Position numbers and translations under genes: made by a program
The notes under the pieces: model-generated
Databases searched by the model: none
The model's input: only the letters and a program-made list of their open reading frames with translations
What the model was told of the DNA's origin: nothing
Part shown: one piece after another, positions 5,346 through 55,022 of the stretch
Numbering within the stretch: position 1 is the first letter of the stretch
How the letters are laid out: the number at the start of each line of letters is the position of its first letter
Assembly: GCA_963696335.1 (NCBI GenBank)
Contig: CAVOJS010000005.1
Coordinates: 39,910 to 103,909, forward strand
Source: Terriglobia bacterium
Lineage (GTDB): Bacteria; Acidobacteriota; Terriglobia; Bryobacterales; Bryobacteraceae
Reading direction: 5' to 3'
Length of the DNA stretch: 64,000 nt

Positions 5346-6104
5346 ATGAACCCGCGGTACCTGATTCTCGCGTCTTTTTTCGCAATCTCCCTCTCCGCCC
5401 AAAACGCCCCCAATCCGGGACGAGGCGCCAACCAGACGGCGAAGACGATGGCGCCCGCGGATTTCACGGGATACTGGGCGGCGGTGGTCGTGGAGGACTG
5501 GCGGTATCGTATGCTGCCGGCTACCAAACTCGAGGCAAAGCCGACGCTGGGCCAGAGAATCGATGTTCCCATGACTCCCGAGGCGCGTCAAATCGCGCTG
5601 AATTGGGATCCGGCGAAGGATGAGGCAGCGGGAGCCGCCTGCAAAGCATACGGCGCGGCCAACATTATGCGCATTCCGGAGCGTATTCACATCACCTGGC
5701 AGGACGACAACATTCTGAAGCTTGAAACCGATGCCGGCCAGCAAACCAGACTGTTCGGGTTCCGCGGGGCGCAAGGCGAGAGCGGCTCGTGGCAAGGGAT
5801 GTCCGAAGCGTCCTGGGAGACAACCCCGGGCGGGAGAGGCGGCCCGATCGCGACGGGTTCGCTGAGGATCTTTACCGACAGGTTGAAGCCGGGCTATCTG
5901 ATGAAGAATGGAATTCCGTACAGCGCGAAAGCAACGGTCACGGAATACTTTGATCGAGTGGACGAGAAGGATGCTTCTTATCTGGTGGTCACCACAACCG
6001 TGGACGATCCTACATATCTGACTCAGCCCTATCTCACATCGGTGCATTTCAAGCGGCAGGCCGACAATTCCGGCTGGAGTCCGACGCCGTGTTCCGCCCG
6101 CTAA
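5346..6104 (+). CDS. Secreted protein of the SGxW family, subtype A (uncharacterised)
   Basis: ATG 5346 is preceded by AAGGAG. The signal peptide is MNPRYLILASFFAISLSAQ. The motif DFTGYW is present, with a Cys pair (AACKAYG ... TPCSA). It is about 50% identical to 17273..18079. Confidence 0.75.
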   Translation: MNPRYLILASFFAISLSAQNAPNPGRGANQTAKTMAPADFTGYWAAVVVEDWRYRMLPATKLEAKPTLGQRIDVPMTPEARQIALNWDPAKDEAAGAACKAYGAANIMRIPERIHITWQDDNILKLETDAGQQTRLFGFRGAQGESGSWQGMSEASWETTPGGRGGPIATGSLRIFTDRLKPGYLMKNGIPYSAKATVTEYFDRVDEKDASYLVVTTTVDDPTYLTQPYLTSVHFKRQADNSGWSPTPCSAR

Positions 6105-6127
6105 ATTGTTTTCTGGAGCCAAAAAAA

Positions 6128-7975
6128 ATGAAGTCTCATGTACTTGCGTTTGCGCTTTGGGTGCTGCCCGCAGGCCTGGCCTGCGCGCAAGGAGGCTTCG
6201 GACCTCAACCAGGTGGCTCCGGGATCGATATCTCCGGCACATGGCATTACGGAGGGCACCAGGACGCGGCGTATGGCACCGCGGCGGGGGCTCTGGTCGA
6301 TTACGGCGGTTTCCCGTTGAACGAGGCAGGACGGTTGTACGCGTTGTCATGGGCATCTTCGCGCATGACCGTGCGGCAGCAGCAATGCGCCGGTTACGGA
6401 ATTCCTTACGCGTACTTCTCTCCGGGGAATTACCGTTATTGGGAAGAGCGAGATCCCTATACGCAGCAGTTGATCGCGATCCATATGTGGTTCCAGACAT
6501 CCGAGACTCGCCGGACGATCTGGATGGATGGGCGTCCGCATCCGCCCGCGTATGCGGCGCACACGTTCCCCGGCTTTTCGACCGGTGAGTGGAAAGGGAA
6601 CGTGCTCACGATCACAACCACGCATCTAAAGCGCGCGTGGCTTCGCGGGAACGGCACACCGTCGAGCGACGAGGCGACGGTGATCGAGCGCCTGATCCGG
6701 CACGGAGATCGCCTCACGGTTTTCACGACCACAACCGATCCCGTTTTCCTCGACGAGCCTTACACCAAAACGATGATCAATCTCCGGAATATCAAGGACC
6801 CGGACGCGTGGTTGTATGCCTGCGAAGACGCGCAGGAAATTTTGAGCCGGCCGGAGGATCAGATCCCGCACTATCTTTTCGGCAAGAATCCGTTCCTTCG
6901 GGATTTCGCGGATAAGAACAAGATCCCGCTCATTGCGACGCTGGGCGGTCCTGCGACGATCCATCCCGAGTTCCAGGTCAAGCTGAAGAGCGCAACCGAC
7001 GCGGATGCGATGGCGGAAGTTGTTCCGCATGGTCCTCAACAGAGCAGCAAGGCGGTAAACCCGGACCCGAACGATGGAGAGATCCACGTTCTGCCGGTGC
7101 AAGGCAGCGTGTACATGCTGGTGGGCGACGGAGGCAATATAGCCGTCCAGGTTGGCGATCAGGGCGCGTTGCTGGTGGACGCCGGAGCGGGCAGAATTTC
7201 AGATAAAGTGGTTGCCGCGATCAGACAGATCAGTAAGAATCCGATTCAATTTATTATCAACACCAGCTTTCACGCGGATCACACCGGCGGCAACGCGAAA
7301 GTTGCGGCGGCGGGCGTGGATCCCAGCATCCTCAATTCGTTCTTCGTCGGACAGGCTCCCACCGGAGCAACCGGTTTCTTTACCGATCCGGCGCATCACG
7401 CCACGCTGATCGGCCAGAACAATATCCTGGTTCGCATGGAAGAAGCGAAAATGCCGGGCGAATCGATTCCGCCCGACACGTATCTCGACAAGCGCCGGCG
7501 AAAGTATCACAACGGCGAGCTCGTGGAGATGTTCTACATGCCCAATGCCAGCACCGACGGCGACAGCATCGTGCATTTCCGTAAGTCCGATGTGATCGCA
7601 ACGGGCGACATCTTCGACACAACCCGCTATCCGTTCATCGACGTTGCGAACGGCGGTACGATCGCCGGCGAAATCGCGGCGCTCAACAATATCCTCGAGA
7701 AAACCGGATACGAGCATGACGAAGACGGCGGCACCATGATTATCCCCGGCCGCGGACGTTTGTCGGATGAATACGATCTTTCGGAATATCGGGACATGGT
7801 CACGATCATTCGTGACCGCGTAAAGGCGGCCGCCGATTCGGGGGCGACCCTGGAACAGGTCAAAGCCTCAAGATTGACCGCCGACTACGACACGCGCTAC
7901 GGCGCGACATCCGGACCCTGGACCACCGATATGTTCGTCGAGGCGATCTTCAAAACGCTGAAACAGCCACGATAA
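6128..7975 (+). CDS. Fusion protein: N-terminal SGxW-family subtype B domain plus C-terminal metallo-beta-lactamase-fold domain
   Basis: The signal peptide is MKSHVLAFALWVLPAGLACAQ. The N-terminal domain carries DISGTW, WMDGRPHPP and GFSTGEWKGNVLTITTTHL and is homologous to 18090..19046. The C-terminal part (from about 7080) is homologous to 16248..17276 and has SFHADH in place of HxHxDH. Confidence 0.85.
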   Translation: MKSHVLAFALWVLPAGLACAQGGFGPQPGGSGIDISGTWHYGGHQDAAYGTAAGALVDYGGFPLNEAGRLYALSWASSRMTVRQQQCAGYGIPYAYFSPGNYRYWEERDPYTQQLIAIHMWFQTSETRRTIWMDGRPHPPAYAAHTFPGFSTGEWKGNVLTITTTHLKRAWLRGNGTPSSDEATVIERLIRHGDRLTVFTTTTDPVFLDEPYTKTMINLRNIKDPDAWLYACEDAQEILSRPEDQIPHYLFGKNPFLRDFADKNKIPLIATLGGPATIHPEFQVKLKSATDADAMAEVVPHGPQQSSKAVNPDPNDGEIHVLPVQGSVYMLVGDGGNIAVQVGDQGALLVDAGAGRISDKVVAAIRQISKNPIQFIINTSFHADHTGGNAKVAAAGVDPSILNSFFVGQAPTGATGFFTDPAHHATLIGQNNILVRMEEAKMPGESIPPDTYLDKRRRKYHNGELVEMFYMPNASTDGDSIVHFRKSDVIATGDIFDTTRYPFIDVANGGTIAGEIAALNNILEKTGYEHDEDGGTMIIPGRGRLSDEYDLSEYRDMVTIIRDRVKAAADSGATLEQVKASRLTADYDTRYGATSGPWTTDMFVEAIFKTLKQPR

Positions 7976-8835: not shown

Positions 8836-8872
8836 ACTCAATGTGACTCGATCGATGCAGCCCGCCTGATTC

Positions 8873-11800
8873 TTAGAACACGTATTTCAGCGCGAACTGC
8901 ATGACACGGGCAGGAGCGTTCGTGGAACTGCCGCCGAGTCCCCCGGGATTGGTGACGCCAATCGGCGGTGCCGCGTCGGTTGTGATCGCGCCGAACGTGC
9001 TGGACGCGCCCGTCGTCAGGTTCGGATTGCCCGGATGCAGGCTATTGGTGACGTTGAAGCTTTCGATGCGCAGGTCGACATGCGTCCCTTCGGTGATGCG
9101 GAAGGCGCGCGAAAGCGCCACATCCCATTGCCAGAATCCCGGCCCGAGGATGTTGTAAGCGCCCATGTTGCCGAACGTCCCAAGCGCCGGATTCGAAAAA
9201 GCCGCCGTGTTCAGCCACGCGAGGCTGAAGGCCCCCGCGGAGGCCGGACCTGCCGCGCCTTGATTCGGCGCATACACACTCGGCAAGACCTGATTCACGC
9301 GCTGTGAACCCGGAGGATTGCCGCCGGAGCCCGTGTTTGGATCGGGATCCACGCCGCTGACCGCGGTCAGATATTGACCCGACCGAGCCTGGAGCGTGGA
9401 AGCGAACGTCCAGCCCGAAGCGACAGTGCGCATCGCCCGGCTGGAATATTTCGGCGTCTGGTAGACGAAGGTGATGTTGGCCACCTGACGGCGATCCTGC
9501 ACGCAGTTGCCGACGTCCAAATTACGATCGTTGGAGCCCGGAAGGTTCGCTCCGAAACCCGAGTGAACGTAGCTTTGGCCGTCGTTGAGAACGGTCAGCG
9601 TGGAAGCCAATCCGATGCAATGCGACCAGGTGTAGTTGCCGTTCACGCTCAACCCGTCGCGGAGGCGATAGCCTGCCGTGAGGAGCAAGCCGTTGTAGCC
9701 CTGCGTGCCGCCATCGTCGTAGGAGGTCAGGTAGCCGAGCGGCGGCGTATTCGGGCTGGCCAGATTCAGCACGCGGCGAGCGGTGATGTTCGCGGTGGTC
9801 GCCTGGGTGCAAGCGCCCGGCGCGGTCAATCCATACTGCCCGGCCGCGCACTGCCCAGGGATGTATTCCGCCGGATTGAGTTCCACCGCATTCCACACGT
9901 GGGTGATGTGGTTGCCCATGTAGGTGGCCGCGACGAACAGGCTGCTGGTGAGCTGCCGTTGGATGCCCGCGTTCCAGGAATATTCCTGATGGGTGTGCAT
10001 GTTGTTTGGAATCGGCAGAAAACCAGGTGCGCAAGCGCCCGACAAACAGGGGATCTGCGACACGCTCGGCCACACCGGATTCTTCGGATTGTAGCTGTAG
10101 GGGAATGGATCACCGCTCCCGTACGGATTCGAGAGGCTGCCCGGAACGCTCGGGAACGCGAACGAAGTGAGACGGAAGGGGAGCGACGAAGAGGTATTTA
10201 GATTGAGATCCTGTTCGATGAAGTCGTGCGCAATCCCGCCGCCGAGGCGGAGGGCGGTCTTGCCGTCGCCGAACGGATCGTAAGCGATGCCGACGCGCGG
10301 ATCGAAGTGGTCGTATTGCGCGTTGATTCCGGATTTGCCGGGGAATCCGGCATCGCCGGGGAAGGTGAATCCCGGCGGAGCGCCGGCGACTGCTTTGCTC
10401 GTGACGCCCGCATAGTAATTCGACAGGCTGAAGTTATACAGATCGCCCTGCTGGAACCTCATGCCGAGAAACGGATCCCAGTTTACGCCGTAGTTCAGCG
10501 TCAGTCGTTGGGTGACTTTCCACGTGTCTTGGGCGTAGAGGCCCACGAAATTCTGGGCCAGATTCAGCGGGTTCGGATTGGCCTGGCGCAACTGGGACAC
10601 GACGCCGAGCATGAAGTCGCCCAGCCCCAATCCCGAATAGGAGTTGCCGACCGTATAGACTCCGCCCGAGAAGGCGTTCGCCACCGACCATTCGATGGAC
10701 CGATCAATGAAACCGCCGACCGCGATTTGGTGCGCCCCCTTCACGAAACGGAAGTCTTCGTTGAGGCCGAAAGCCGTGGTGTAGGCGAACGAATTCTGGC
10801 TGGGCCAGCCGCTGCCGAGGGAGAAGGCTCCATTGACGGGGATGGTCAGGTAGTTCGGCTGATAGGTGTACGCGTTGATGCCGACATTCGCATACGTGCT
10901 TGCGCCGGCTGCTTGCCCGAACATGTTCGGACCCGGCAAAATCGCCGAAATCCGGTTCATGAACAGACGGAGCGAGTTGACTTGCGTTCCGCTGAGCAGG
11001 TACGTGTCGCCGATGGTGAATCCATCGAATTGATCATTGGCTCCCACGCCGCCCGCGGCTAGAAGGTTCGGGCCGGTGCCGCCACCGAGGAGGGGAACGT
11101 CCTGGGCCAGGCCCAGCGGGACCTGAATGAGCTGTTTGACCAGCATGTTGCGGACGAACAAGCTCTGCTTATCGCTGATCTGATAATCGCCGCGAATGTC
11201 GCCTTCGTGATCGTTTTCGCTCAACGGCACGGCGTATTGCGTCGTGCCGCACGGATTCGTCGTCAACGGCAGGAGCTTCGCGATCTTCACCGCGGCAGGA
11301 TCAAACGAGGTCGGGTTGATCATGTTCGTGGCATAGCCATTGGTTCCGAACGGAGCTTTCAGCGTCTTTTGGGTTCCTTGGCATGCGGGCGAAGCAAACG
11401 CCGTGAAATCGCCCGCGAGCATGGCCGCGGTCGGTACAAACGTTGTGTTCGCGAGCGGCGTCTGGCGCACGAAGGTCCCCTGGTAGCCGGCGAAGAAGAA
11501 CAGCTTGTCCTTCTTGATCGGTCCGCCGACGGTGCCGCCGAACTGGTTGCGCTTCAGGCCATCCGGGCCCTTCGCGAAAAAGTCACGCCCGTTGGCGTCG
11601 CTATTGCGAAGGAATTCGAAAACGTCGCCATGGAAGTTGTTGGTGCCGGATTTCATCACGGCATTGACGGACGCGCCCGCGCGGCCCACGACTCCAGCCT
11701 CCTGCGTGCTGGTGGAGATCTTGAACTCCTGCAGAGCATCCGGGAACGGCAGGATCATGCTGGTGCCGTCGAAATAGTTGTCGTGATTGGCGCCGTCCAG

Positions 11801-12364
11801 ATAGTACTGCACGCCGTCTTGCATGCCTCCAGCCACCGAAATCTTGTAGCCGGTTCGCATCCCATAGCTGGGATTGAGGCCCGATATTACCGCGGCGCCA
11901 CTCAGCGGAACCAGGTCGGCCGGCTGGCGCCCATTGAGGGGAAGATCCAGCACGCGCTGGTTCTCGACCACCGAGCCGACGCCCACACTGCTGGTTTCCA
12001 CCTGTGTGGCATTGGCCTCGACGCTCACGCGCTCGGACACCGCGCCCACCTTCATCGCGATGGGAACCGCCGGGTCGCTGCCGACTTGCAGCACGATGCC
12101 GGTCTGCACGGTCGTGGCGAATCCTTCTTTGTTCACCTCGAGCTGATAAGGTCCCAGCGGAAGATTGGCGAGAACGTACTCGCCGTTTGCTTCGCTGTTC
12201 ACCGTGCGGGAAATGCCCGTCTCGGTTTGCGTGGCTTTCACCATTGCACCGGCGATCGCCGCGCCCGATGAATCCTGGACCACACCGTGAATCTGCGCGG
12301 TCGCCTGCCCCCACGCGGCTGCCGCCGCGAGTACCGACAGGAATACAATCTTGATCATCCTCAC
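8873..12364 (-). CDS. TonB-dependent-receptor-like outer-membrane protein with carboxypeptidase-regulatory-like N-terminal domain (1163 aa)
   Basis: The signal peptide ends in WGQATAQ. It carries the plug-like motif RVLDLPLNGRQ and the C-terminal sequence FALKYVF (terminal Phe). It is a close paralog of 1..2524. GTG 12364 sits 5 nt after GGAGG. Confidence 0.9.
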   Translation of the reverse strand: MRMIKIVFLSVLAAAAAWGQATAQIHGVVQDSSGAAIAGAMVKATQTETGISRTVNSEANGEYVLANLPLGPYQLEVNKEGFATTVQTGIVLQVGSDPAVPIAMKVGAVSERVSVEANATQVETSSVGVGSVVENQRVLDLPLNGRQPADLVPLSGAAVISGLNPSYGMRTGYKISVAGGMQDGVQYYLDGANHDNYFDGTSMILPFPDALQEFKISTSTQEAGVVGRAGASVNAVMKSGTNNFHGDVFEFLRNSDANGRDFFAKGPDGLKRNQFGGTVGGPIKKDKLFFFAGYQGTFVRQTPLANTTFVPTAAMLAGDFTAFASPACQGTQKTLKAPFGTNGYATNMINPTSFDPAAVKIAKLLPLTTNPCGTTQYAVPLSENDHEGDIRGDYQISDKQSLFVRNMLVKQLIQVPLGLAQDVPLLGGGTGPNLLAAGGVGANDQFDGFTIGDTYLLSGTQVNSLRLFMNRISAILPGPNMFGQAAGASTYANVGINAYTYQPNYLTIPVNGAFSLGSGWPSQNSFAYTTAFGLNEDFRFVKGAHQIAVGGFIDRSIEWSVANAFSGGVYTVGNSYSGLGLGDFMLGVVSQLRQANPNPLNLAQNFVGLYAQDTWKVTQRLTLNYGVNWDPFLGMRFQQGDLYNFSLSNYYAGVTSKAVAGAPPGFTFPGDAGFPGKSGINAQYDHFDPRVGIAYDPFGDGKTALRLGGGIAHDFIEQDLNLNTSSSLPFRLTSFAFPSVPGSLSNPYGSGDPFPYSYNPKNPVWPSVSQIPCLSGACAPGFLPIPNNMHTHQEYSWNAGIQRQLTSSLFVAATYMGNHITHVWNAVELNPAEYIPGQCAAGQYGLTAPGACTQATTANITARRVLNLASPNTPPLGYLTSYDDGGTQGYNGLLLTAGYRLRDGLSVNGNYTWSHCIGLASTLTVLNDGQSYVHSGFGANLPGSNDRNLDVGNCVQDRRQVANITFVYQTPKYSSRAMRTVASGWTFASTLQARSGQYLTAVSGVDPDPNTGSGGNPPGSQRVNQVLPSVYAPNQGAAGPASAGAFSLAWLNTAAFSNPALGTFGNMGAYNILGPGFWQWDVALSRAFRITEGTHVDLRIESFNVTNSLHPGNPNLTTGASSTFGAITTDAAPPIGVTNPGGLGGSSTNAPARVMQFALKYVF

Positions 12365-12598: not shown

Positions 12599-12609
12599 GC
12601 GTTGAAAGT

Positions 12610-15600
12610 TTAGAACGTCAGTTTCAGCGCCAATTGGATCTGGCGCGGATTGCCGACGTCGTACAGGATTTTCCCGGCGTTGGGATTACGCACCGGGTTC
12701 CCACCCACGATGGTCGTGTAGAGGTTCGCCGTGCTATTCGCCGCGATGGGAAGTCCCCAGTTTGTGTGATTGAACAGATTGAAGAATTCCGCGCGGAATT
12801 GCAGATTCATACCTTCGCGGATTTTGGTGTCCTTGATGACCGCCATATCGGTGTCGTTAAATCCGGGACCGCGCAAGTTATCGCGGCCGGAATTGCCGAA
12901 TGTTCCGAGGGGCGCGTAAGCGAATGCAAGCGGATTGACGTAAACGCCCCCGGCATTGCCGGTGACGGGGTTGCCCGTGCCGATAAAGTTCGGCCGCGGA
13001 TTGTCGACGCCGGTTCCGAAGCCGAGGGTGTCGACACCCTCAAACATGGTAAAGGGCAAGCCAGTTGTGGAAGATACGATGCCGCTGATCTGCCAGCCGG
13101 AGACCACGCGATTCTTGGTAAAGGGTAGCGTGTACAGACCGTTCACGCGCAAGGATTGCGTGATGTCGTAGTTGCAAGGGCCCTGATCGTAGCTCTGATT
13201 GTAAGGGTTGCCCCACGCCGCGTTCACGTTGTTGTTGAAGCTGCCGATGGCCGATCCGTCATCCGTGCATTTTCCCCAGGTGTAGGAAACCTGAGCCTGC
13301 ACGTTGCGGGTCAGACGCCGATTGACGGCAACCTGCAGCGAGTTGTAACGCGAGTTGGTGGTGGGAATGAAATCCGGGAACGAACCCAGAGCGGGATTGA
13401 CTCTTCCGAATGTGGCGACCGCCGTTCCGGCCGCATTGAACCCGCCATTGCCGTTCGCGGTGTTGACGGTGGTACCCGTCGGTCCGATCACCAGCGGATT
13501 CTGTTCCACCTGCGTCAGTTCGTGAACTCCACGGGAGCCCACATATCCCACCGTGAGAATGGTTCCCTGCATCAGCTCGCGCTGAATGCTCAGGTTGTAT
13601 TGGATCACGTAGGGCGTGGTCTGGTTGTTGTAGTCAAAGCCGGGGCTGGAGGTCACCAGCGGATTCCCGCCCACAGGGATGGTCGGGAAGGCCGGTGCGA
13701 CGCTGCCCGGAACCGAGAGACCGGCCTGGAACGTGGTCCACGGCGGCTGATCCCAGTACGCGGGAATGTACATGGCGGGCAGAATCAGATCGTGGTAGAT
13801 GCCGATGCCGCCACGGATGGACGTCTTGTGATCCTTAAAGGGATCGAACGCGAAGCCGGCGCGCGGATCGAAGTTTTTGTACGTCGGATTCTTCACGAAG
13901 ACGTTCGGGACGTTGGTGAAGTTGGTCGCAGTCGCGAAATTCGTGATGGCGAACAGATCGTTGTGCTGATCGACCGGATTGGAAATGAACTCCCAGCGCA
14001 CGCCGAAGTTTACGGTGAGCTTCGAAGAGACTTTCCAGTCGTCCTGAAAGTACGGCGTGAACTCGATATCGCGCAGATCGCGATTGGCGTACGCCGGTCC
14101 CGCGCCCGGATCGTTGGAGGGGATCGTCAGAGGCGTCCACGACAGAACCGTGGGAGTTCCCGTCAGGAAGCCGCTGAGACCCGCAAAGGCCCAAGTGGAA
14201 CCCTGGCGGAACGGCATGTAGGTATTGCTCTGCAGGCGCGAAACGGATGCGCCCAGGCGAATGGTCTGCGCGCCCTTGGTCCAAGTGATGTCGTCGCCTT
14301 CCGTGAAGCGGTTCTGGGTTTCATTGAAGGGGAGCTGCGTCGCGCCGCCGAGGCCGGCTAGCTGTCCGCCGAAAGTCACCTGACCGTCCTGACGCCCGGC
14401 GCCCGGAAAGAAGTTTTGCAGAGCGGGAACGGAGTTCGTGGTGGACGCATTCGTCGCGGTGCGCGTAAAGTGCAGACGCGCCACGTTGACCAGAGTCGGA
14501 TTTACAATGCGGCGCCATTCCGCCGTCGTGAACTGATACAGCGACGCATCGCCTTCGGGCCACAACGGGATGCCGCCACCCGCGCCCGCGAAACCACCAC
14601 CGCCGAACGGATCGGTGAAGGTCACGGCGTCGGTGACCGAGCGGAAGAAGATGGAGTCTTTTTCGGAGATGTTGTAGTCCACGCGGCCGAGGCCGTAGTG
14701 CTCGCTTGCAACCTGATTGGCGGTCTGTGTCGAGATGGTGCCCACGCCGTTATCGGGCGCCGGAAACAGCTTCAACACGTTGATAATCGCCGTCTGTTCG
14801 GCAAGCGGTAAACTCGCCGCCGGAGTGCAGGCTCCGCCGGTGAAGGCGTTGGCCGCGGTGCAATTGGGGACCGCGACCGATTTCACCACGCCCTGGGTGC
14901 GGGCGATCGCCTCGAAGTTACCGAAAAAGAAAATTTTGTCCTTCTTGATCGGTCCGCCCAGGCTCGCGCCATACTGATTCTGGCGTAGCGCGGGCTTCAC
15001 AGGATCAGCGACGTGCTTGGACAGCGTATCGTAAGCGTCCATCGCGTCGTTGCGGAAAAATTCGTAAAGGGATCCGTGATATTCGTTGGTGCCGGATTTG
15101 CTGACCGAGTTAATCACGCTTCCGTTGCCGCCGAACTGCGCGCCGTAAAGGTTGGTGAGCGTCTGGAACTCGCCGATGGCCTCCACACCGAGCGACGAAC
15201 CCGTCACCGATCCCATCCCTTTATTCCAGAAGTTCTGCAGGCTTTCATCGTCGAGCAGGAGCGCCTGTCCCTGGGGACGCGATCCCGCAATCGAATATTC
15301 CGGGGCTCTGCCCTGGAACCCGGACGAGCTGAACGTGCTGACCTGATTGACGCCCGGAGCAAGCAAAATCAACTGCTCAAAGTTGCGTCCGTTGAGCGGC
15401 AGTTCCTTCATCTGGCGCTGATCGGTCAGAGTGGCTACCGCTGAAGACGTGGTTTCCACCTGCGAGACTTGTCCTTCGACGGTCACCGTCTGCGTCTGCT
15501 GCCCCACTGGCATGGAGAAGTCGACATTGACTTCCGCTCCGACGTTCAGCGCGACGCCGCTGTGAGCCACGGTGGAAAAACCCGCCTTGCTCGCAGTCAC

Positions 15601-33370: not shown

Positions 33371-33396
33371 GCTTTTCGCTCCTGTATCCCGAGGGC

Positions 33397-44869: not shown

Positions 44870-45904
44870 TTAGGCCAACGCCCGCCGGCAGAACTGCACA
44901 GCCTTACTCACCTCGCCCACCGGATCGAGCGTTCCGGCATGCTCATACTCGATGAACGCCGGAATCGGATATTTTTCCTTCTTCAGCAACTGCAGGACTT
45001 CCCGGATCGGCGTGTCTCCTTCGCCCCAGGGAACACTGGCGCCATCCTCTTCGGTCTTCGACTGATTCCTCTTCCGATCCTTCAAATGCAAATTCGAGAT
45101 GCGCTCGTGAAAGGATTTGATGAACTCGACCGGGTTCTCGCCGGTCGCCGCATAGTGCCCAATGTCCAGATTCGCGCCCACCCATCGGGAGAGCGCGAAG
45201 GCCTTCTCGAACGTGGCGCGCGTCGAGAAATGCTCGGGATCCCACGTCGCGCTGTGCCCGTGCGGAGCGATCATCATCCGGTTTTTCTCCGCGAACGGCA
45301 CCAGCCGCTTCAGCATCGTCATCGTGGTCGAAACGTTCACGGACTTGCATCCGAGCGCGGTGGCGAATTGAAAGGTGCGATCGATCTCCCGGTCGGACCA
45401 CTCGGGACCGGCCATCGGATTGTAAGCGTAGACCCTGATTCCCGCCGCGTCGAATCTTTTGCGGATAGCCGTGAAGGCATCGAGCGAAACGGTCTCGCGC
45501 CAGTGTTTTTCGGCCGCGCGGGCCGTTTCCAGGGCCTTCCCATCCAGCCGCTTGAATTCCCACGCCCAGGGATTGCGGGCGCTGCCGCCCTTCGCCGCCG
45601 AGCAACCCAGGAACGGTTGCGGGCAATCCGCCGGCGCGGGCACTTTCCCCGTCATCGTTCCCGGCTCGATCTGCGGCGCGAAGAGTTCGCACTCGTCCAG
45701 GCCGCAAGCCTGCATCTTCTGGATGATCTGGCTGGTATGATCCTGCCCGTCATTCAGAATGTCGTGAAAGCTGTACGTTTGAACGCCGAGTTGCACGCCG
45801 GCGACGGTGGAGTTCGCGCTCGCTCCCGCCGCATGCAGCCTCCACGCGGAGAGCGGAAAGCTCGCGGCGGCAACCGTGGCGAACTTTCTTCTCGTAAGGA
45901 TCAC
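44870..45904 (-). CDS. Tat-signal xylose-isomerase-like TIM-barrel protein
   Basis: The Tat motif is ILTRRKFAT. The conserved block is LHLKDRKRNQSKTEEDGASVPWGEGDTPIREVLQLLKKEKYPIPAFIEYEH. The start is GTG 45904. Confidence 0.9.
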   Translation of the reverse strand: MILTRRKFATVAAASFPLSAWRLHAAGASANSTVAGVQLGVQTYSFHDILNDGQDHTSQIIQKMQACGLDECELFAPQIEPGTMTGKVPAPADCPQPFLGCSAAKGGSARNPWAWEFKRLDGKALETARAAEKHWRETVSLDAFTAIRKRFDAAGIRVYAYNPMAGPEWSDREIDRTFQFATALGCKSVNVSTTMTMLKRLVPFAEKNRMMIAPHGHSATWDPEHFSTRATFEKAFALSRWVGANLDIGHYAATGENPVEFIKSFHERISNLHLKDRKRNQSKTEEDGASVPWGEGDTPIREVLQLLKKEKYPIPAFIEYEHAGTLDPVGEVSKAVQFCRRALA

Positions 45905-46032: not shown

Positions 46033-49000
46033 TTAGAACAACAACTTCAGCGCGAACTGGATGTCGCGCGGCGTATAGAACGCGTTCATCGTCGTGATTT
46101 TGCCGAAGTTGCCGGCATTGGTCGGCACACCCGCGCTGGTGAAACCGCTGATCGTCGTGCCCGGCATCCCGAACGACGGCGTGTTGGCCACGTTGAAGCC
46201 TTCGGCGCGGAACTGCAGCGTCCAGCCTTCTCTCACGCGGAAATCCTTAAAGACCGATAAGTCGATCCGCATATTGTGCGGCATGGTGAAGTCGTTGTGA
46301 CCTTCGTTACCCGCCGTGCCGAACGGCTGTTTGGCGAACTGCGTGATGTCAAACCACTCGTTGATACTTTGCGAATAGCCCTGTCCGGCGACGACGTTCG
46401 GGCGATCCGAGGTCACGCCGAAGGAGTTCTGCTGAGCGCTCCCGTCGAGCACGGTGAACGGCTGCCCCGTTCCGAACGAGTAAATCCCGTTGAGCTGCCA
46501 GCCCTTGCCGAGCACTCCCGCCGCGCCTTTCCAGGTCTTACCGAAGGGCAATTCGTAATTGCTGGCGAGCGTATAGCGGAACTTTGCCATGTAATCGCTT
46601 GGACCGTAGTCGCGCGCCAGATTATTCCACACCTGGCCACAGCCGGTGCAGGCGCCGCCTGTGCTGCCCACGTCGGAAAGATCGCTGGCCCACGTGAAGC
46701 TGGAGTCGACGGTCAACCCCTTCGAGAGACGGCGGCGGAAGATCACTTGCATTGCCGTGTAATTGGCAACACCATTCGTCTCCAAAAGCTGGATGGTGCC
46801 GACCAGCGGCAGCGTGCTGGCAAAGGGCAGACACGGGCTGCCGAAGCCCACGGTTGTCGTGACACCGCAGCCGCCGGGACCGAGCGGAGGAAGATTCGTC
46901 GCGATGTTCGGAATCACGCGGCCCAGGTTGCGCACGGGTTCGGCCACGAATCCCACGCTCAAAACGTTGCCCCAGAATTCCTTCTCCAGGGTGAGGTTGG
47001 TCATGTAAACGGTGGTGTTGTGGTACGGGATCTGGGTCCCGGAACCCACCGAAAAACCGCTCGGCGTGTAGCCCGGCGAACCCGTGGACGCTCCGCAAGC
47101 CGCTACCAGGCAGATCGAGTTTGCGACCACCGCGGGCGTAGCCTGGCTGACCGTCTGACTCGGCGTGGCGGTCTGATTGATCGTGTAATTGGACACCAGC
47201 GGCGCGTTCTTCAAGTTGGCCGGCGAAGCCACGTTATTCGGCCAATAGGACATGCCGAATCCCCCCCGGAGCACCAGGCCGTGCCCCAGCGTCGCGGCGA
47301 AGCCCAGGCGCGGCTGCACGTCGCCCCACTGCGTCCCGATATTGACCGAATCGCTGACACCCGCCGCTCCCGCAACCTGAAGCATGCCCGCGGCGAGAAT
47401 GGCCGGGTTGGTGGGATCGAAGTTGGAGAGCGCGTCATGCTTCGCGGTGATGGGCGTGTAGATGTCCCAGCGTAAACCGGCGTTGACGGTCAGCCAGCGC
47501 GTGGCGCGCCAGTTGTCCTGGATGTAATCGCCGATTTCCCAATCCCGGTATTGCGGCGCCGCGAGCGACATGTTGCGCACGGAACTCGCGTAATACCCCG
47601 TCAAGAGAGAAGCCAGCGAGTTGCCGCCGCTGCCCGAGGAGGAACCAGTCGTGCTGGTCTGGGCGGAATTGATATTGAACTCCTGCTTGAACAGAATCTG
47701 GTACGTGCTCCAATCGCGCCGCAGCAGGCTCGCGCCGAATTTGATCGTATGCGCGCCTTTCGTCCAGGTGAGCGATCCGCCGTATTGGTAGTTGGTATCC
47801 CAATACGCCGTGGGCAGCGCGAAACCATCCCCCAGGTCGGCGTAGCCGCCGTTCTGGAAATTGAGGAGCGCCAGGCCGCCGGTGGCCGGGATGCTAGGAG
47901 TATTGACGTTGGCCGGTCCGCCGAATGCCGTATTCCCGTTCACGCCCTGATTGGCGCTTGAGGAGATGGTCACGTAGCGGGCGAGCTGCGCGTTGAGCTG
48001 CAGCACCATGGTCGGCGAGAAAATGTGGACGTCACTGAAGGACAACGCCTGCTGCCGCTGGTATGCCGACCCCGGGAAGGCGTTGGTGTTCAGCGAACTG
48101 GGCTGCGGAATGGTCACGCCGGCGACCGTAGCCGTGGGGAGATAACCCGGCGAGAAGGTATCCGTGTTGTTGACCGAATAACGCGCGAAGAAGTTGTCTG
48201 TATCGGAGAAGTGCTGGTCGATGCGGGCGTCGCCAATGTGCGCGTATTGCGTCTGGTTCGGGCTCGAGACAAACAAGCACGTCGGCGAGCCGCAATTCAG
48301 CGTCGGGTACAGGGCCGCGTAGTTGGCGGCCACGGAATTGATGCTCGACAGGGGAATGACGTTGTTGGCGTACTGCACATGGCTGACGGGGTCGTAGATC
48401 GGCGCGCTTTGGTCGGAGAAATTCCCAAGCTGCTGCACGCCGTTGCACGCGATGCGGCCGAGTTCGCATGCCGAGGGAATCGTCGCCTGGAAGGTATTGC
48501 CCTGGATCTTACGGAAGCCTTCGTAGTCGGCGAAGAAGAAAGTCTTGTCCTTCTTAATGGCGCCGCCGACGGAGCCGCCGAACTGATTCTGGCGATACTC
48601 GGGCCGCACACCGGCGAGCGGATTGCCGGCTTGCGGGACGTTGAAGAAGTTCTTCGCGTCGGTCGCGTCGTTGCGAAGAAACTCGAAAAGCGAGCCATGG
48701 AGATTGTTCGTACCGGACTTGGTGATTACGTTGATCACCGCGCCGCCCGCGCGGCCTTCCTCGGCCGGATACATGTTCGTGTCGACCTTTACTTCTTGTT
48801 GCCCGTCGATCGAGGGCTTCACGATGATCGTCGCGATCGCGCGCTCGTTGTTATCCATGCCGTCGAGCAGGAAGTTGTTTGCCGAATCGTTCTGGCCGTT
48901 GGCCGAGACCGCCGAGCTCTGGCGGCGATCGTCGGGACGCGTGCCGCTGCCTAGCGAGCTCTGCACGGATTCCGTCGCGCCCGGAGCGAGTTGCACCAGG

Positions 49001-49476
49001 CGGATAAAGTTTCGCCCGTTCACCGGCAGGTCCTGCACGGCCTGGCTGGTGACCAGCCCGCCGACCGTGGAGCTATCGGTTTGCAGAGCTACGGTCTGCT
49101 CGGCTACTTCGACCGTTTGCGTTAGTTCGCCGACTTGCAACTGCGCGTCCACGCGGTTGCGGTCGCCGGTTGCGAGCGTCACCTGCTCCTGCTTATAAGC
49201 CTTGAACCCCTGGGCCTCCACGGTGACGGTGTAGGTGCCCACGGGCAAAAGCGCGAACGAGTACTCGCCCGCCGAAGTCGTCTGCTGAGTACGCGTGAGG
49301 TTGGTGCCCAAATTCTTCGCGGTGACCTTAGCGTTGGCGACTACCGCTCCGGAATTATCGGTGATCGTACCGACGATGTCGGCCGTGCCTTGAGCGAAGA
49401 GCGCCGCGCCGCCCGCGGCCATGCACCAAGCCAGAATAAGACTCCTTAACAATGACCGCTTCATGGACCCCTTCAT
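46033..49476 (-). CDS. TonB-dependent-receptor-like outer-membrane protein with carboxypeptidase-regulatory-like N-terminal domain
   Basis: The likely start is ATG 49476 (MKGSMKRSLLRSLILAWCMAAGGAALFAQ). It carries the motif LPVNGRNFIRL and the C-terminal sequence FALKLLF. Confidence 0.9.
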   Translation of the reverse strand: MKGSMKRSLLRSLILAWCMAAGGAALFAQGTADIVGTITDNSGAVVANAKVTAKNLGTNLTRTQQTTSAGEYSFALLPVGTYTVTVEAQGFKAYKQEQVTLATGDRNRVDAQLQVGELTQTVEVAEQTVALQTDSSTVGGLVTSQAVQDLPVNGRNFIRLVQLAPGATESVQSSLGSGTRPDDRRQSSAVSANGQNDSANNFLLDGMDNNERAIATIIVKPSIDGQQEVKVDTNMYPAEEGRAGGAVINVITKSGTNNLHGSLFEFLRNDATDAKNFFNVPQAGNPLAGVRPEYRQNQFGGSVGGAIKKDKTFFFADYEGFRKIQGNTFQATIPSACELGRIACNGVQQLGNFSDQSAPIYDPVSHVQYANNVIPLSSINSVAANYAALYPTLNCGSPTCLFVSSPNQTQYAHIGDARIDQHFSDTDNFFARYSVNNTDTFSPGYLPTATVAGVTIPQPSSLNTNAFPGSAYQRQQALSFSDVHIFSPTMVLQLNAQLARYVTISSSANQGVNGNTAFGGPANVNTPSIPATGGLALLNFQNGGYADLGDGFALPTAYWDTNYQYGGSLTWTKGAHTIKFGASLLRRDWSTYQILFKQEFNINSAQTSTTGSSSGSGGNSLASLLTGYYASSVRNMSLAAPQYRDWEIGDYIQDNWRATRWLTVNAGLRWDIYTPITAKHDALSNFDPTNPAILAAGMLQVAGAAGVSDSVNIGTQWGDVQPRLGFAATLGHGLVLRGGFGMSYWPNNVASPANLKNAPLVSNYTINQTATPSQTVSQATPAVVANSICLVAACGASTGSPGYTPSGFSVGSGTQIPYHNTTVYMTNLTLEKEFWGNVLSVGFVAEPVRNLGRVIPNIATNLPPLGPGGCGVTTTVGFGSPCLPFASTLPLVGTIQLLETNGVANYTAMQVIFRRRLSKGLTVDSSFTWASDLSDVGSTGGACTGCGQVWNNLARDYGPSDYMAKFRYTLASNYELPFGKTWKGAAGVLGKGWQLNGIYSFGTGQPFTVLDGSAQQNSFGVTSDRPNVVAGQGYSQSINEWFDITQFAKQPFGTAGNEGHNDFTMPHNMRIDLSVFKDFRVREGWTLQFRAEGFNVANTPSFGMPGTTISGFTSAGVPTNAGNFGKITTMNAFYTPRDIQFALKLLF

Positions 49477-49759
49477 GTGTATTGCCCCCAATCGGTTTAC
49501 GAACAGTGATTCGACACGGCATCCCGGACATGGGCTGCTGCGTGGTAGCACCATGACTTTGTTCCGCGGGAGGCCGGACGGCGCTCCCAAAAACGCGACT
49601 TCCCAAAGCTATACCCGTTTGGCGGGTTTACAAGCTCGGAACGGTTTCATTACAGAGAACGAAGGGGATCTTTCCTGTTTTGATGAAGTTGGCCACTCTC
49701 GCGCGGACGTATCACCGCGTAATAATACGGTTATCTGAAGATTCCTTGGAACGAACTGT

Positions 49760-50806
49760 CTACCAGAAACGGGTGGCCAGCACGTGCGGAGGACCCGCGA
49801 CGCGGCCGACGACGCTCGCTGAGATCAAAATTTCCATGTTCTTGTGATCCCAGCCCGGCGGAGCTGCGGCGGCGAAATCCGTCATGCACTTCTCGCAGGT
49901 TAGAAAGTCGCCGGCGGCCTCGGTGCCGAACATTGCGAGCCCGGCCGCGGTCACCACGATTTTTCCCGTGGACGGGTCCACCAGGCGCGACACAATCGCG
50001 TAGTCCAGCTTGACATCCGCGTAGGGTGCGCTCATCACGTGCATCCACCGGCGATGACCCGGATCCTGCGTATCCTCAATCCAGCTCTGGTGCGAATCCT
50101 GGTTGTGATCGAACCGGAAGCGCAGTTGCCGCGTAAGCTGGAGCACCCAGGAATTGTTGAATGCCCCGATCAGCACGGCCGACCCGTCGCGGAGATCCTC
50201 CACTTGCGCCATGGGCTGAAGCCGCAGCCGATAGGACTGATGACGACCCGTCATCAGCGCAACCAGGCGGGCCATTGCCGTTGCATCCTCGAAGGCAACC
50301 TGCTCCGATTGATGAAGATCCGAGAGCGTGTTCACCGGCGCGACGGGGACGTCCTGACCGATATAGATGGTGACTGTCCCGCCGGAGCCGATGACCGGCG
50401 CCCAAAACCGATCGAGCGCGCTCGACGGCGCCCACCATCGCCCCACCAGAAATGTGACCACGACGAGCGCCGCGATCCCCCCGGCGATTGCATACGGATT
50501 GCGCCGCGTCACCGGCTTCGCCGCGGCCGGCTCGGGCAGAGGACTCACCACCGCGGGTTGAGCCGGCATCCGGAACTCCGGCATGTATGTGCCGGGAGGG
50601 AAATCGATCCGGATCTCGGCCTCGTGGCCGGGCTCGTGGTAATACTGCGCGATGCGCTTGCGAATCTCGACCGCTGTCGTGCGAACCACCGGATCAAGAT
50701 TGGTGTCGTAGTCGGGCTCGCGTCCGAAAACCTCGATGCCGAGCGTGCGTTCCTTCAACGGCTCGGTATGACCTTTCAGCGCGCGTTCCACCACAAAGCC
50801 CAACAA
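49760..50806 (-). CDS. Single-pass membrane protein with an N-terminal cytoplasmic helical module and a periplasmic C-terminal domain. The start codon is unresolved.
   Basis: It carries LGFVVERALKGHTEPLKERTLGIEVFGREPDYD...VRTTAVEIRKRIAQYY, then the TM segment AIAGGIAALVVVTFLVG. Homologous-looking coding sequence continues in frame upstream to 50974 without an ATG, GTG or TTG codon. Confidence 0.7.
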   Translation of the reverse strand: MLGFVVERALKGHTEPLKERTLGIEVFGREPDYDTNLDPVVRTTAVEIRKRIAQYYHEPGHEAEIRIDFPPGTYMPEFRMPAQPAVVSPLPEPAAAKPVTRRNPYAIAGGIAALVVVTFLVGRWWAPSSALDRFWAPVIGSGGTVTIYIGQDVPVAPVNTLSDLHQSEQVAFEDATAMARLVALMTGRHQSYRLRLQPMAQVEDLRDGSAVLIGAFNNSWVLQLTRQLRFRFDHNQDSHQSWIEDTQDPGHRRWMHVMSAPYADVKLDYAIVSRLVDPSTGKIVVTAAGLAMFGTEAAGDFLTCEKCMTDFAAAAPPGWDHKNMEILISASVVGRVAGPPHVLATRFW

Positions 50807-52551: not shown

Positions 52552-53490
52552 CTACGACTCGAGAATATTCTTCAAATACTCGAGTTGGCCCTTCGTCTCA
52601 TCCGCTGGCTTGCCGGGTCCACGGAATTCGCGCTCGATGATCCCGTAGATCGGCCACTTATTGTCGCGAATCATCGTGAGGCATTCGCGGATCGGCGTGT
52701 CGCCGGTGCCGAGAGCGACGTTCGGTCCGTTATCGCGCTTCCGATCCTTTATATGGATATGCGTGATCCGGTCGTGGTGTTTGCGAAGGAAATCGGCGGC
52801 ATCGTTGTTGCCCGCGGTAAAGTGGCCAATGTCCAGATTAATCGCGAAGAGCTTGGACATGGCCAGCAGTTTTTCGAGGCTGGCGACGCTCGCCACTTCG
52901 TTCGGATCATTCACCATGGCGTGCGGATGCCACGCGGGCCGGATCTTGTATTTTTCGGCAAATGGAATGAGCCGCGGCGCGACGTCCACGCGGCTTTGAT
53001 TGGTGCAGAAGAAGCCGACCTTCAGAGCCTGCATCTGCTTGAACACCGCGTCGATCTCCTCGTCCGTGAAATCCAGGTCGAAGGTCATGACGTAGGAGAT
53101 CAGACTGATCCCGGCAGCGTCGAATTTTTTGCGGATGGTACGGAAAGTGTCGATCGGCGTCTTCAAGCGCCATTCGCGCACCGCCGCTCGGGATTTCTCG
53201 TATTCGGGCGTCATCGGCGAGGGAGGATGGCCGAAGCCCACCGCGCCCACCAGACGCGGCTCCAGCAGGTTCACCAGCTCGACGTTGGCCGCGCCGATAT
53301 ACGTGCACTCCTCGATGATCGTATCGATCGGGTCCTTGCCTTCGGGCAGCGGGTTGAGTGACCCGGTGATCAGGCCGAGCTTAACGCCGCGAACCGTGGA
53401 GTCGAGCTTCGCGCTCCAGGCCCTCGGTGCGGCGGCCGCGAGCGCGGCGGCCGAGAAGATCCGCTTTCCAAATTCACGTCGTGATTGCAT
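52552..53490 (-). CDS. Tat-signal xylose-isomerase-like TIM-barrel protein
   Basis: The Tat motif is MQSRREFGK. The conserved block is IHIKDRKRDNGPNVALGTGDTPIRECLTMIRDNKWPIYGIIEREF. Confidence 0.9.
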   Translation of the reverse strand: MQSRREFGKRIFSAAALAAAAPRAWSAKLDSTVRGVKLGLITGSLNPLPEGKDPIDTIIEECTYIGAANVELVNLLEPRLVGAVGFGHPPSPMTPEYEKSRAAVREWRLKTPIDTFRTIRKKFDAAGISLISYVMTFDLDFTDEEIDAVFKQMQALKVGFFCTNQSRVDVAPRLIPFAEKYKIRPAWHPHAMVNDPNEVASVASLEKLLAMSKLFAINLDIGHFTAGNNDAADFLRKHHDRITHIHIKDRKRDNGPNVALGTGDTPIRECLTMIRDNKWPIYGIIEREFRGPGKPADETKGQLEYLKNILES

Positions 53491-53522
53491 GGTGTTCTCT
53501 CTTTCTCAATTCCGTTCAAAAA

Positions 53523-54266
53523 CTATCTGGCCGTGGCGGCCGGCGATCCGGTCAAAAAAGCGGTGCGGTCATCGTCGAACGGGTCGCAGGCAATCGGCTG
53601 GCGAGCTTCATAATCCCGGGCCGCTCTCTGGTATCGATACTCGTAGGTTTGTGGAACACGGAATACCTTGGGATCGGTCCAGGTGGAGACGATCGACAGC
53701 ATGCTGCCGTTCTTCAAGAGCTTGAACCGTTCGACCAGATGGGCGTCGGCACTGCGGAAGCCTCCGCCCGGAATCGCCGTCATGCCGTGTTCCGGCTCGA
53801 AGCCCACCGTATCGACCACCAAAGTGTCGCCCTCCCAATTCCCGATCGAATCCCCGTTCGTGGACGGATCGAAAATGTCCTTGGAGATGTGCTGCGGGCG
53901 ATCGAGATAAATGTGCCTCGGTACCGTCACCACCGATTCGGCCGCGACAACGACTTCATGCTTGCCCTGGCGGATATCCAACGGCCGGGAAACGCCCATA
54001 AGGAACGGCAAACCGAGAATGTTGCACCAGCGGATGGCCTTCCGGTCCTTCTGCTGCTGGGCGTCCAGATCGGATTTTGTTACGCTGTCGGCTAGCTGTG
54101 CGGGCGGAACGTGTCTGCCGTCGAAGGATAACTCCCAGAATCCGGAAACATCGTGCGGATCGAAGCCCGCGGCGCGCGGCGGCCCGCCAGTTTGTGCGGA
54201 TGCCGTGAACGAAAGCACCAGGAGGGGGGTCGCGATAGCCCAAAAACCACGGGAATTGGGATGCAT
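53523..54266 (-). CDS. Secreted protein of the SGxW family, subtype C1
   Basis: Motifs are DVSGFWEL, GDSIGNWEGDTLVVDTVGF and IPGGGFR, with a Cys pair (RWCNILG ... IACDPFDD). YLDRPQH replaces DGRxHP. The gene starts 9 nt after the upstream stop. Confidence 0.8.
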   Translation of the reverse strand: MHPNSRGFWAIATPLLVLSFTASAQTGGPPRAAGFDPHDVSGFWELSFDGRHVPPAQLADSVTKSDLDAQQQKDRKAIRWCNILGLPFLMGVSRPLDIRQGKHEVVVAAESVVTVPRHIYLDRPQHISKDIFDPSTNGDSIGNWEGDTLVVDTVGFEPEHGMTAIPGGGFRSADAHLVERFKLLKNGSMLSIVSTWTDPKVFRVPQTYEYRYQRAARDYEARQPIACDPFDDDRTAFLTGSPAATAR

Positions 54267-54275
54267 ATATTATGT

Positions 54276-55022
54276 TCAGGGGAGCTGCTTGGGAGGCACG
54301 ATCGATTGGCGTTGCAGAGCGTCTCCCGAATCGCACCAATCTTCGAAGGCATAGCTTCCGGGCGGCTGCCGGTCAAAAGAAATCTGATACTCGTGCGGCT
54401 TTTGGTAGATCTTGGGATCGATCCACGTATACGTAACCGTCAGGCGCTTCGCCTCCTGCGTAAGATGGAAACGCTCGTGAAGGTGCGTTTCAGCTGTCCG
54501 CCAGCCCTGGCCGAACGCGACGCGTCCGGTGGTGAAACCGGTTGTATCCACAACCAGATCTCCGCCTTCGTAGTGCCCGACGGAGTGCCCGCCGGGGGTC
54601 GGATTCCAGCGCGATGGGTCGGGATGGGCGCGGCCGTCGATGTAAATATGCCGCCCGGAAGGATTCTCACGGGTCACCAAGACTTCGTCCTTGCCTTGGA
54701 CAATAAAAAAGGCGGCCGAATTTACGTCCACGCCTCCGAAACCACCGCCGCCGCAGCGTCCTTCGGTGACGATGTAGGCCTCACCGACTTCGTGGGGGCG
54801 ATTGTTTTCGGCAAAAGCAAAGCGCGGAGGAGCGGGCGGAGGCATCTGCGCCAGCGCCTGGGGCGTGAGAACGGCCCGAGGGAACAGATCGTCGATGCCG
54901 CCGTAGCTGCCGCCACCGGCCAGATCGAGACGGGTCCACCCGCCTTCAAGGTCCGGCACCTGGGCAAAAACACAACCGGCGGCGAGGACTACAAGAACAC
55001 TAAGCGTGACGGGTGCCTTCAT
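54276..55022 (-). CDS. Secreted protein of the SGxW family, subtype C2
   Basis: The likely start is ATG 55022 (MKAPVTLSVLVVLAAGCVFAQ). Motifs are DLEGGW, YIDGRAHPDP and GHSVGHYEGGDLVVDTTGF, with a Cys pair (GRCGGGG ... DWCDSGD). Confidence 0.8.
   Translation of the reverse strand: MKAPVTLSVLVVLAAGCVFAQVPDLEGGWTRLDLAGGGSYGGIDDLFPRAVLTPQALAQMPPPAPPRFAFAENNRPHEVGEAYIVTEGRCGGGGFGGVDVNSAAFFIVQGKDEVLVTRENPSGRHIYIDGRAHPDPSRWNPTPGGHSVGHYEGGDLVVDTTGFTTGRVAFGQGWRTAETHLHERFHLTQEAKRLTVTYTWIDPKIYQKPHEYQISFDRQPPGSYAFEDWCDSGDALQRQSIVPPKQLP

Follow-up and report, generated by a model that had tools for sequence, protein, structure and literature searches.

The 64,000-nucleotide stretch analyzed here (the window), from contig CAVOJS010000005.1 of a Terriglobia bacterium, encodes thirteen members of a family of exported proteins. 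An earlier reading made from the sequence alone (the original prediction) had listed thirteen such genes or domains, and the proteins translated from all 13 sets of coordinates matched its descriptions. We named the members A1, A2, B1, B2, C1a-d, C2a-d, and U after their subtypes (A, B, C1, C2, and unpaired). On the plus strand, A1 (5346-6104), which has two cysteines, is directly followed by B1 (6128-7975), whose family domain (about 6128-6990) is fused to a C-terminal metallo-beta-lactamase-fold (MBL) domain. A2 (17273-18079, plus strand) overlaps with its start the stop of an upstream MBL gene by 4 bp, and B2 (18090-19046, plus strand) lacks an MBL domain and has a Pro/Gly-rich C-terminal tail. 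The other members are on the minus strand. U (24451-25164) adjoins an HbpS-like gene and served as the reference for residue numbering and for the structure model. In the four C-type pairs the C2 gene is the upstream partner of C1: C2a (29315-30091) and C1a (28530-29318, start overlapping the C2a stop by 4 bp), C2b (34098-34859) and C1b (33397-34101), C2c (42705-43478) and C1c (41980-42708, directly upstream of a DUF6152 gene), and C2d (54276-55022) and C1d (53523-54266). The members are 234-318 residues long, except for B1, in which the family domain occupies ~290 residues at the N-terminus of a protein of 615 residues.

The 13 genes are a real paralog family with significant homology. In an all-versus-all BLASTP comparison with E-values scaled to a database of 1e9 residues, C1, C2, and U matched one another with E-values of 1e-10 to 1e-71, B matched U at 4e-7, and A matched B at 7e-5. 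No direct match between A and C was found among the 13 members, and thus these subtypes are linked transitively, via B and U. A2 and A1 share 48% identity, and B2 and B1 share 37%. A hidden Markov model (HMM) built from the 13 members (alignment A2) was used to scan the stop-to-stop segments of the window in six frames, and it recovered exactly the 13 segments (E 1e-62 to 8e-92), with no 14th member at E <= 0.01. The claim of a thirteen-member family is therefore borne out by both the BLASTP significance and the HMM scan. The motif D-[ILVF]-[STE]-G-x-W, which the original prediction had reported for all thirteen proteins, was present in 13 of 13, and its count of ten DGRxHP motifs was also reproduced: a DGRx[HQ]-type motif was found in 10 of 13 members, is missing in A1 and A2 (subtype A), and is degenerate (LDRPQH) in C1d (53523-54266). 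B1 (6990-7150) and B2 (18800-19046), both on the plus strand, also have in common ~50 conserved residues that follow the barrel domain described below (HYLxGxNPF...IPLIA..GG...PEF). Only B1 runs on into the MBL domain; the tail of B2 is low-complexity and Pro/Gly-rich with a CTRNC motif.

All 13 members passed a heuristic signal-peptide check (a distinct method from SignalP) that looked, in the sequence preceding the D-x-[STE]-G-x-W motif, for a basic n-region, a hydrophobic stretch (10-residue Kyte-Doolittle mean of at least 2.0), and AxA-like sites. C2c contains a run of arginines (RRR), possibly part of a TAT signal. It is thus well supported by their N-termini that the members are exported by Sec to the periplasm, probably as mature proteins of ~210 residues, and the predicted signal peptide at the start of each protein is upheld at the level of this heuristic. 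A canonical lipobox was found in none of the 13 members, so we rejected the reading of these proteins as SusD-like surface lipoproteins. The first cysteine is present in 13 of 13 members and the C-terminal one in 12 of 13, as the original prediction had counted. The exception is C2b, in which the second cysteine has moved to a loop near position 154, a relocation common to all C2b orthologs. Among 279 relatives, 266 have exactly two cysteines in the mature domain. The 25 without a cysteine at column 219 all keep C81, and most of them have a second cysteine elsewhere; the few single-cysteine relatives include open reading frames (ORFs) cut by contig ends. Since the partner cysteine relocates in compensation, which is good indirect evidence, a structural disulfide anchored at C81 is well supported by the alignment, and the invariant cysteine would lie at the junction of lid and barrel. 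The proposal that the conserved cysteine pair forms a structural disulfide in an extracytoplasmic protein is thus strengthened by the two-cysteine rule and by the C2b clade, where the partner is relocated and not lost.

An AlphaFold2 model of U was built on the alignment labeled A1, with a pLDDT of 83.4 and a pTM of 0.79. The model begins with a signal helix; strand 1 covers residues 30-38 and a helical insertion residues 39-95, after which come eight more main strands and a C-terminal helix. In a Foldseek search of the PDB, the top 50 matches were all of the intracellular lipid-binding protein (iLBP) fold (CRBP, CRABP, SAHS), with a best E-value of 8e-4 and TM-scores of 0.55-0.66 when normalized to the target and about 0.4 when normalized to the longer query. 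The structural hallmarks of calycins (an antiparallel up-and-down barrel, G-x-W on the first strand, and, as in iLBPs, a helical lid between strands A and B) were also present in the model. It is thus well supported, at the level of the fold only, that the members adopt a calycin-type beta-barrel nearest to the fatty-acid- and retinoid-binding "beta-clam". The predicted order of elements, equally well supported, is a first strand carrying D-x-S-G-x-W, a hypervariable helical lid, and a rigid barrel.

Conservation was calculated over 279 non-identical members from the fetched loci, with U numbering. C81 and G135 are conserved in 100%, E174 and D192 in 99%, G30, W32, and G163 in 96%, R116 in 94%, C219 in 91%, W141 in 90%, D121 in 86%, H125 in 81%, and H171 in 78% of the sequences; H125 and H171 are lost in subtypes A and B. 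The lid, from W32 to C81, varies between 14 and 80 residues and has only 0.96 bit per column, and the distance from C81 to G135 is 49-62 residues. The most conserved element is the beta5-beta6 hairpin (GHSIGHWEGDTLVVDT) with 3.31 bit per column.

The iLBPs (FABP, CRBP, CRABP) are the best structural matches to the barrel model, and the order of elements (first strand, helical lid, remaining antiparallel strands) appears to be common to both. However, iLBPs are cytosolic, monomeric, and eukaryotic, whereas the window proteins undergo export, exceed iLBPs in length by ~70 residues, carry a disulfide staple and a long hypervariable lid, occur as hetero-pairs, and have no detectable sequence similarity to iLBPs. 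With lipocalins, including bacterial Blc (Pfam Lipocalin and Lipocalin_2), they have in common the N-terminal G-x-W on the first strand, the C-terminal helix, export to the envelope, and the barrel fold. In contrast, no lipocalin was among the top 50 fold matches of the barrel, the signal peptides are not of the lipoprotein type, the DGRxHP and GHSIGHWEGDTLVVDT motifs are unknown in lipocalins, and neither the members nor their relatives matched PF00061, PF08212, or related models even at E <= 10. ZinT/YodA, nitrobindin-like proteins, MliC/PliC, and protease inhibitors were found neither in the PDB profile search nor among the top 50 fold matches. Because every sequence-membership test failed, we kept the family out of the FABP and lipocalin families. 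We regard it as a previously undescribed family of a known class of folds that comes with its own new partners.

Other database searches agreed with the original prediction that no family name can be assigned. When ten window members were compared with Pfam-A 2025 and NCBIfam 20.0 at E <= 1, nothing relevant besides MBL was found; the sole non-MBL match was Hfq_1 to A1, at chance level (E 0.22). Thirty-six relatives gave only scattered chance matches to Pfam at E <= 10, and a profile of 36 sequences matched none of the PDB sequences, lipocalins and FABPs included, at E <= 10. A search with U returned at least 7925 homologs, and all 120 that were listed are unnamed or "hypothetical" and have no Pfam domain. 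The Sphingomonadales relatives are annotated as "hypothetical protein" in RefSeq. No paper on this family, DUF6152, or DUF6644 was found in full-text searches of the literature.

The family is nevertheless large. The A2 profile matched 16,735 of 1.84 billion representatives clustered at 50% identity at E <= 1e-3 and 9,761 at E <= 1e-10, yet the family has neither a name nor a structure nor a paper. A scan of one genome per species gave at least 593 confirmed loci from the 598 pattern matches listed. The best 80 of these loci were nearly all from Acidobacteriota (Bryobacterales, Terriglobia, Acidiferrales), with a few from Gammaproteobacteria and one from Verrucomicrobiia; named relatives are from Bryobacteraceae and Bryobacterales. 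The family is also present on eight Sphingomonadales plasmids, and culturable carriers include Novosphingobium humi, Sphingobium sp. TomTYG65, and Croceibacterium atlanticum. Thirteen copies lie within 50 kb in the window, and the Acidobacteriota that carry the family are abundant soil bacteria. A new Pfam family is justified, and it would tie two existing DUFs to the barrel family.

The original prediction had overlooked the pairing of subtypes, as well as the calycin/FABP-like fold and the DUF6152 and DUF6644 partners. In the window, three of the four C2/C1 gene pairs show a 4-bp overlap and the genes of the remaining pair have 9 bp between them; the gap between A and B genes is 10-23 bp. 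With a C1 profile we recovered 80 soil-metagenome loci, 43 of them with enough flanking sequence; C2 was directly upstream of C1 in 29 of the 43 and downstream in four more. Elsewhere two family domains are fused in one protein: P0371 has a B-type followed by an A-type domain, P0370 has two C1-like and P0377 two U-like domains, and L030 is another tandem fusion. About 20 of the top 150 representatives are two-domain proteins of 450-530 residues with two matched stretches. Gene order and fusions together make it well supported that the members act as pairs (C2 with C1, A with B). Representatives of unusual length contained no fusion partner beyond MBL, apart from one apparent gene-call merger with an outer-membrane barrel.

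The most general neighbor is DUF6152 (PF19649), whose only copy in the window (41531-41938, minus strand; Pfam E 8e-27) directly follows C1c. None of the 13 members matched PF19649; DUF6152 is thus a separate gene and a partner of the family, not a member. We examined 82 loci (80 from the genome scan and two contigs with U homologs, L004 and L005). In 59 of the 82, DUF6152 lies within 300 bp of a family member on the same strand, usually immediately upstream, and in L059 (two genes) and L070 an N-terminal DUF6152 and a C-terminal barrel form a single polypeptide. The signal peptide of DUF6152 ends in ...A|HH, and this HH and a downstream NPH are each conserved in 99% of 95 sequences; the HH also remains at the mature N-terminus in the fusions with the barrel. 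The AlphaFold2 model of DUF6152 (pLDDT 87.9) is an OB-fold, with OB domains of lysyl-tRNA synthetases as its best Foldseek matches (E 2e-3). On these grounds it is well supported that DUF6152 is a family-wide partner, probably an exported OB-fold protein, and the HH and NPH motifs suggest a metal site that would use the free N-terminus.

Downstream of DUF6152 in the window are two small polytopic membrane proteins that match DUF6644 (PF20349; 40904-41467 and 40412-40891, minus strand). The DUF6644 pair recurs after C1c and DUF6152 in metagenome loci and on the Sphingomonadales plasmids. DUF6644 has a single invariant histidine, in the first helix, and R50, K103, W145, and a GR are also conserved. 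The Sphingomonadales plasmid module consists of a barrel, DUF6152, and two DUF6644 with or without a TonB-dependent receptor, and that of Croceibacterium of two DUF6152, a barrel, and a receptor. In Sphingobium sp. TomTYG65, a plasmid block (L167, 8147-14818) encodes a peroxiredoxin, a barrel, DUF6152, a second barrel and DUF6152, two DUF6644, and a TonB-dependent receptor. This block adjoins tauD and ssu sulfonate-utilization genes, and a link to sulfur scavenging is possible in this strain. A barrel pair with DUF6152 and DUF6644 is a concrete unit that can be tested.

These partner genes, and not the barrel, resemble CopC/CopD and YcnI in that a small exported protein with an invariant first mature histidine (DUF6152) is encoded beside small polytopic membrane proteins (DUF6644). 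The likeness is one of gene logic only, and metal binding by DUF6152 is putative. DUF6152 is an OB-fold in the model, not a beta-sandwich, and has no sequence match to CopC or YcnI. Its assignment as CusF, CopC, or YcnI by sequence was rejected, since none of them, and no other PDB sequence, was found as a relative and the fold search gave generic OB-folds only. A CopD-like identity for DUF6644 was likewise rejected, with no CopD match at E <= 10.

The original prediction had placed the family always next to exported enzymes or outer-membrane receptors, and this is broadly true in the window, where U stands beside an HbpS-like gene. Enzyme linkage is specific to each orthologous subtype and is conserved at 45-70% identity. 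For subtypes A and B the linked enzymes are MBL hydrolases. The MBL domain of B1 (residues 334-506) matched PF00753 at E 5e-11, and the barrel-MBL fusion of the B1 type is widespread (2945 homologs, most of ~620 residues). Directly upstream of A2-B2 is a stand-alone exported MBL-fold hydrolase (16248-17276, plus strand; PF00753 E 1e-10) with a signal-like N-terminus. SoxH-related models matched it below their cut-offs, and the MBL domains gave only remote, uninformative matches to solved structures.

The C-type pairs have other neighbors. A xylose-isomerase-like TIM barrel with a twin-arginine (TAT) N-terminus (52552-53490, minus strand; PF01261) lies directly downstream of C1d, and four paralogs with twin-arginine N-termini (27563-28486 after C1a, 30295-31248, 38233-39201, and 44870-45904, all PF01261 and on the minus strand) were found in the window. 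In all five, only the C-terminal half matched PF01261; a cytoplasmic relative (32411-33457) matched PDB 8RO4, a 2-hydroxy-3-keto-glucal hydratase, at E 7e-9. A TIM barrel is encoded downstream of C1 more often than anything else (16 of the 43 metagenome loci, compared with seven for DUF6152). It is absent from U-type loci and specific to C-type pairs, so we rejected it as a general partner. Directly upstream of C2b-C1b are a cytochrome c (36584-37480) and a PQQ-dependent dehydrogenase (34869-36581), both assigned by Pfam and on the minus strand. The best PDB match of the dehydrogenase is a type II quinohemoprotein alcohol dehydrogenase (E 4.5e-78). A mechanically called ORF (34869-36974) merges the dehydrogenase with an upstream out-of-frame stretch; the dehydrogenase itself starts at ~36581, as in related loci. 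The order cytochrome c, PQQ dehydrogenase, C2b, C1b is kept in L109, L113, L135, L139, L143, and L144, and that of PQQ dehydrogenase, C2b, C1b, and TIM barrel is conserved in metagenome loci.

C2c is directly preceded by a double thioredoxin-fold exported protein (43481-44755, minus strand) with CNHC and CGPC motifs, which matched AhpC-TSA, Redoxin, and Thioredoxin_8 and is ResA/TlpA-like. It holds the equivalent position in L087, and in Sphingobium a peroxiredoxin precedes the family gene. Upstream of this module is a TonB-dependent-receptor-like outer-membrane barrel (46033-49590, minus strand; CarboxypepD_reg and OMP_b-brl_4, Pfam E 4e-194). It is one of five such barrels in the 64 kb, the others being at 536-2578, 8873-12364, 12610-15864, and 19252-22527; the receptor at 46033-49590, which was the one checked, matched no NCBIfam model. 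The order receptor, C2c, C1c is kept in L087, L089, L090, L093, L102, L105, and L108. Two operons recur in the metagenome loci, and both arrangements are also seen in the window. One contains a homolog of the regulator-like gene at 49760-50806, a TonB-type barrel, the thioredoxin-fold protein, C2c, C1c, DUF6152, and two DUF6644, and the other DUF6152, cytochrome c, PQQ dehydrogenase, C2b, C1b, and the TAT TIM barrel. Other recurrent neighbors of U-type loci were a TAT NHL-like propeller (17 loci), LuxR-type regulators (13), and Amidohydro_2 (seven in the cluster analysis and 10 by direct search). The operons thus described combine outer-membrane import with periplasmic oxidation or hydrolysis, and therefore the family probably bears on the uptake and processing of organic matter by its acidobacterial carriers.

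The proposal of a dedicated but undescribed periplasmic function is still apt, and the candidate roles that came with it (substrate binding, chaperone, accessory subunit, receptor partner) remain live. Our preferred reading, which we hold tentatively and at somewhat less than even odds, is that the proteins are periplasmic modules for small-molecule capture and hand-off. The barrels would capture small molecules entering the periplasm (organic substrates or products, probably of amphipathic or aromatic character) and pass them to the enzyme encoded next door, i.e., the TAT TIM barrel, the MBL hydrolase (fused in B1), or the PQQ dehydrogenase; membrane proteins are an alternative target of the hand-off. 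The variable lid would set specificity, and the conserved hairpin and the DGRxHP loop may form a shared docking or dimer surface. The number of paralogs would track substrate diversity, as with other receptor-linked binding proteins. We prefer capture and hand-off because proteins of this fold class bind small amphipathic ligands, a variable lid sits on a constant scaffold, and there are many paralogs, and because each orthologous subtype keeps its own enzyme neighbors, with one subtype fused to a hydrolase. SusD/SusC offer an analogy in function only: they too have many paralogs per genome and are tied to a TonB-type receptor and substrate-specific enzymes. However, SusD has an unrelated fold, the window proteins are periplasmic and not surface lipoproteins, and a receptor adjoins about a quarter of the U-type loci.

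Several observations weigh against capture and hand-off. No ligand, cavity, or interface has been seen so far for the barrels, and the Foldseek matches are weak (E about 1e-3, query-normalized TM about 0.4). Pure-binder families with diverse ligands usually conserve little beyond structural motifs, and here the polar residues E174 (99%), D192 (99%), and R116 (94%) are near-universal, a pattern that fits catalysis, or a cofactor or metal site common to the family, at least as well. A receptor was found within 10 kb in only ~20 of the 82 U-type loci; linkage to import is thus not obligatory, and the TonB-type receptor was rejected as an obligatory partner. Moreover, a simple shuttle for organic ligands leaves the His-His N-terminus of DUF6152 unexplained.

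There is also a broader reading. The barrel pairs, DUF6152, and the two DUF6644 might constitute an undescribed three-part envelope system for metal-dependent or redox chemistry, or transport, of compounds entering the periplasm, plugged into many catabolic operons of soil Acidobacteriota and Sphingomonadales. Alongside the paired calycin barrels it would contain an OB-fold protein whose free N-terminal His-His resembles a histidine brace, and a heterodimeric four-helix membrane anchor whose subunits each have one invariant histidine. We regard this as possible, with somewhat less confidence than capture and hand-off.

Relay of a metal or metallo-cofactor is an unlikely explanation. Here the HH and NPH histidines of DUF6152 would bind Cu, Zn, or Ni in a histidine-brace-like manner, the barrels would receive or present the metal via DGRxH, H171, and E174, and the DUF6644 pair would move the metal across the inner membrane or anchor the system in it, so that periplasmic metalloenzymes are supplied or buffered. 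The 99% conservation of HH and NPH is consistent with such a relay, as is the HH that stays N-terminal in natural fusions. Two DUF6152 proteins are labeled "YcnI" by JGI, all neighboring enzymes belong to metal-dependent superfamilies (MBL, xylose-isomerase-like TIM barrel, Amidohydro_2, PQQ dehydrogenase), a TlpA/ResA-like thiol-disulfide protein is adjacent, each DUF6644 subunit has one invariant histidine, and TonB-type receptors are nearby. However, metallochaperones are normally few per genome, and the window has thirteen barrels and one DUF6152. Enzymes that use the TAT route are generally loaded in advance of their export. The histidines H125 and H171 reach only ~80% conservation and have been lost from subtypes A and B, DUF6644 has no CopD match at E <= 10, and no PDB sequence of CusF, CopC, or YcnI matched DUF6152. 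The two-component system upstream of A1 is generic: its best matches, all below cut-off, were CpxRA/PhoB-like, and it is not clearly of the heavy-metal type.

About equally improbable is a catalytic role for the barrel (for example as an isomerase, cyclase, lyase, or lactone-handling enzyme), with an active site made of E174, D192, R116, and the DGRxH loop, and with A as the degenerate, non-catalytic partner of B. Enzymatic calycins are known, allene oxide cyclase and lipocalin-type synthases among them. The polar residues are near-universal across 279 diverse members, within some pairs one partner has lost the motif (A versus B, C1d versus C2d), much as in enzyme/pseudo-enzyme heterodimers, and in operons the genes lie between a dehydrogenase and a TIM-barrel enzyme, as would be expected of a pathway step. 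But GxW, R116, E174, and D192-P are also compatible with a purely structural role, and no likeness to a known enzyme was found in the Pfam, NCBIfam, PDB-sequence, or Foldseek searches. Since members of four unrelated enzyme superfamilies neighbor one and the same conserved core, an accessory role is the easier explanation.

Least probable of all, the barrels would be non-catalytic protein partners of exported enzymes (stabilizing subunits, chaperones, or inhibitors like the calycin-fold periplasmic protease and lysozyme inhibitors) without a small-molecule ligand: the tight, subtype-specific enzyme linkage, the MBL fusion, and the highly conserved hairpin, which could be a protein-protein interface, speak for it, but most U-type loci have DUF6152 and no conserved enzyme neighbor, tandem arrays of up to six copies lack matching enzymes (L019, L023), and barrels covered by a hypervariable lid more typically bind ligands.

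Two further genes on the minus strand were noted. The gene at 49760-50806 encodes a protein of 348 residues with no Pfam family and is conserved upstream of receptor-C2c-C1c in many metagenome loci; its position suggests that it is a regulator. The gene at 57290-58633 encodes an exported protein of 447 residues that gave no NCBIfam match and a weak Pfam match to cytochrome c. An N-terminal CxxCH heme motif is followed by HH and HxH, and the protein may be a heme-copper type oxidoreductase.

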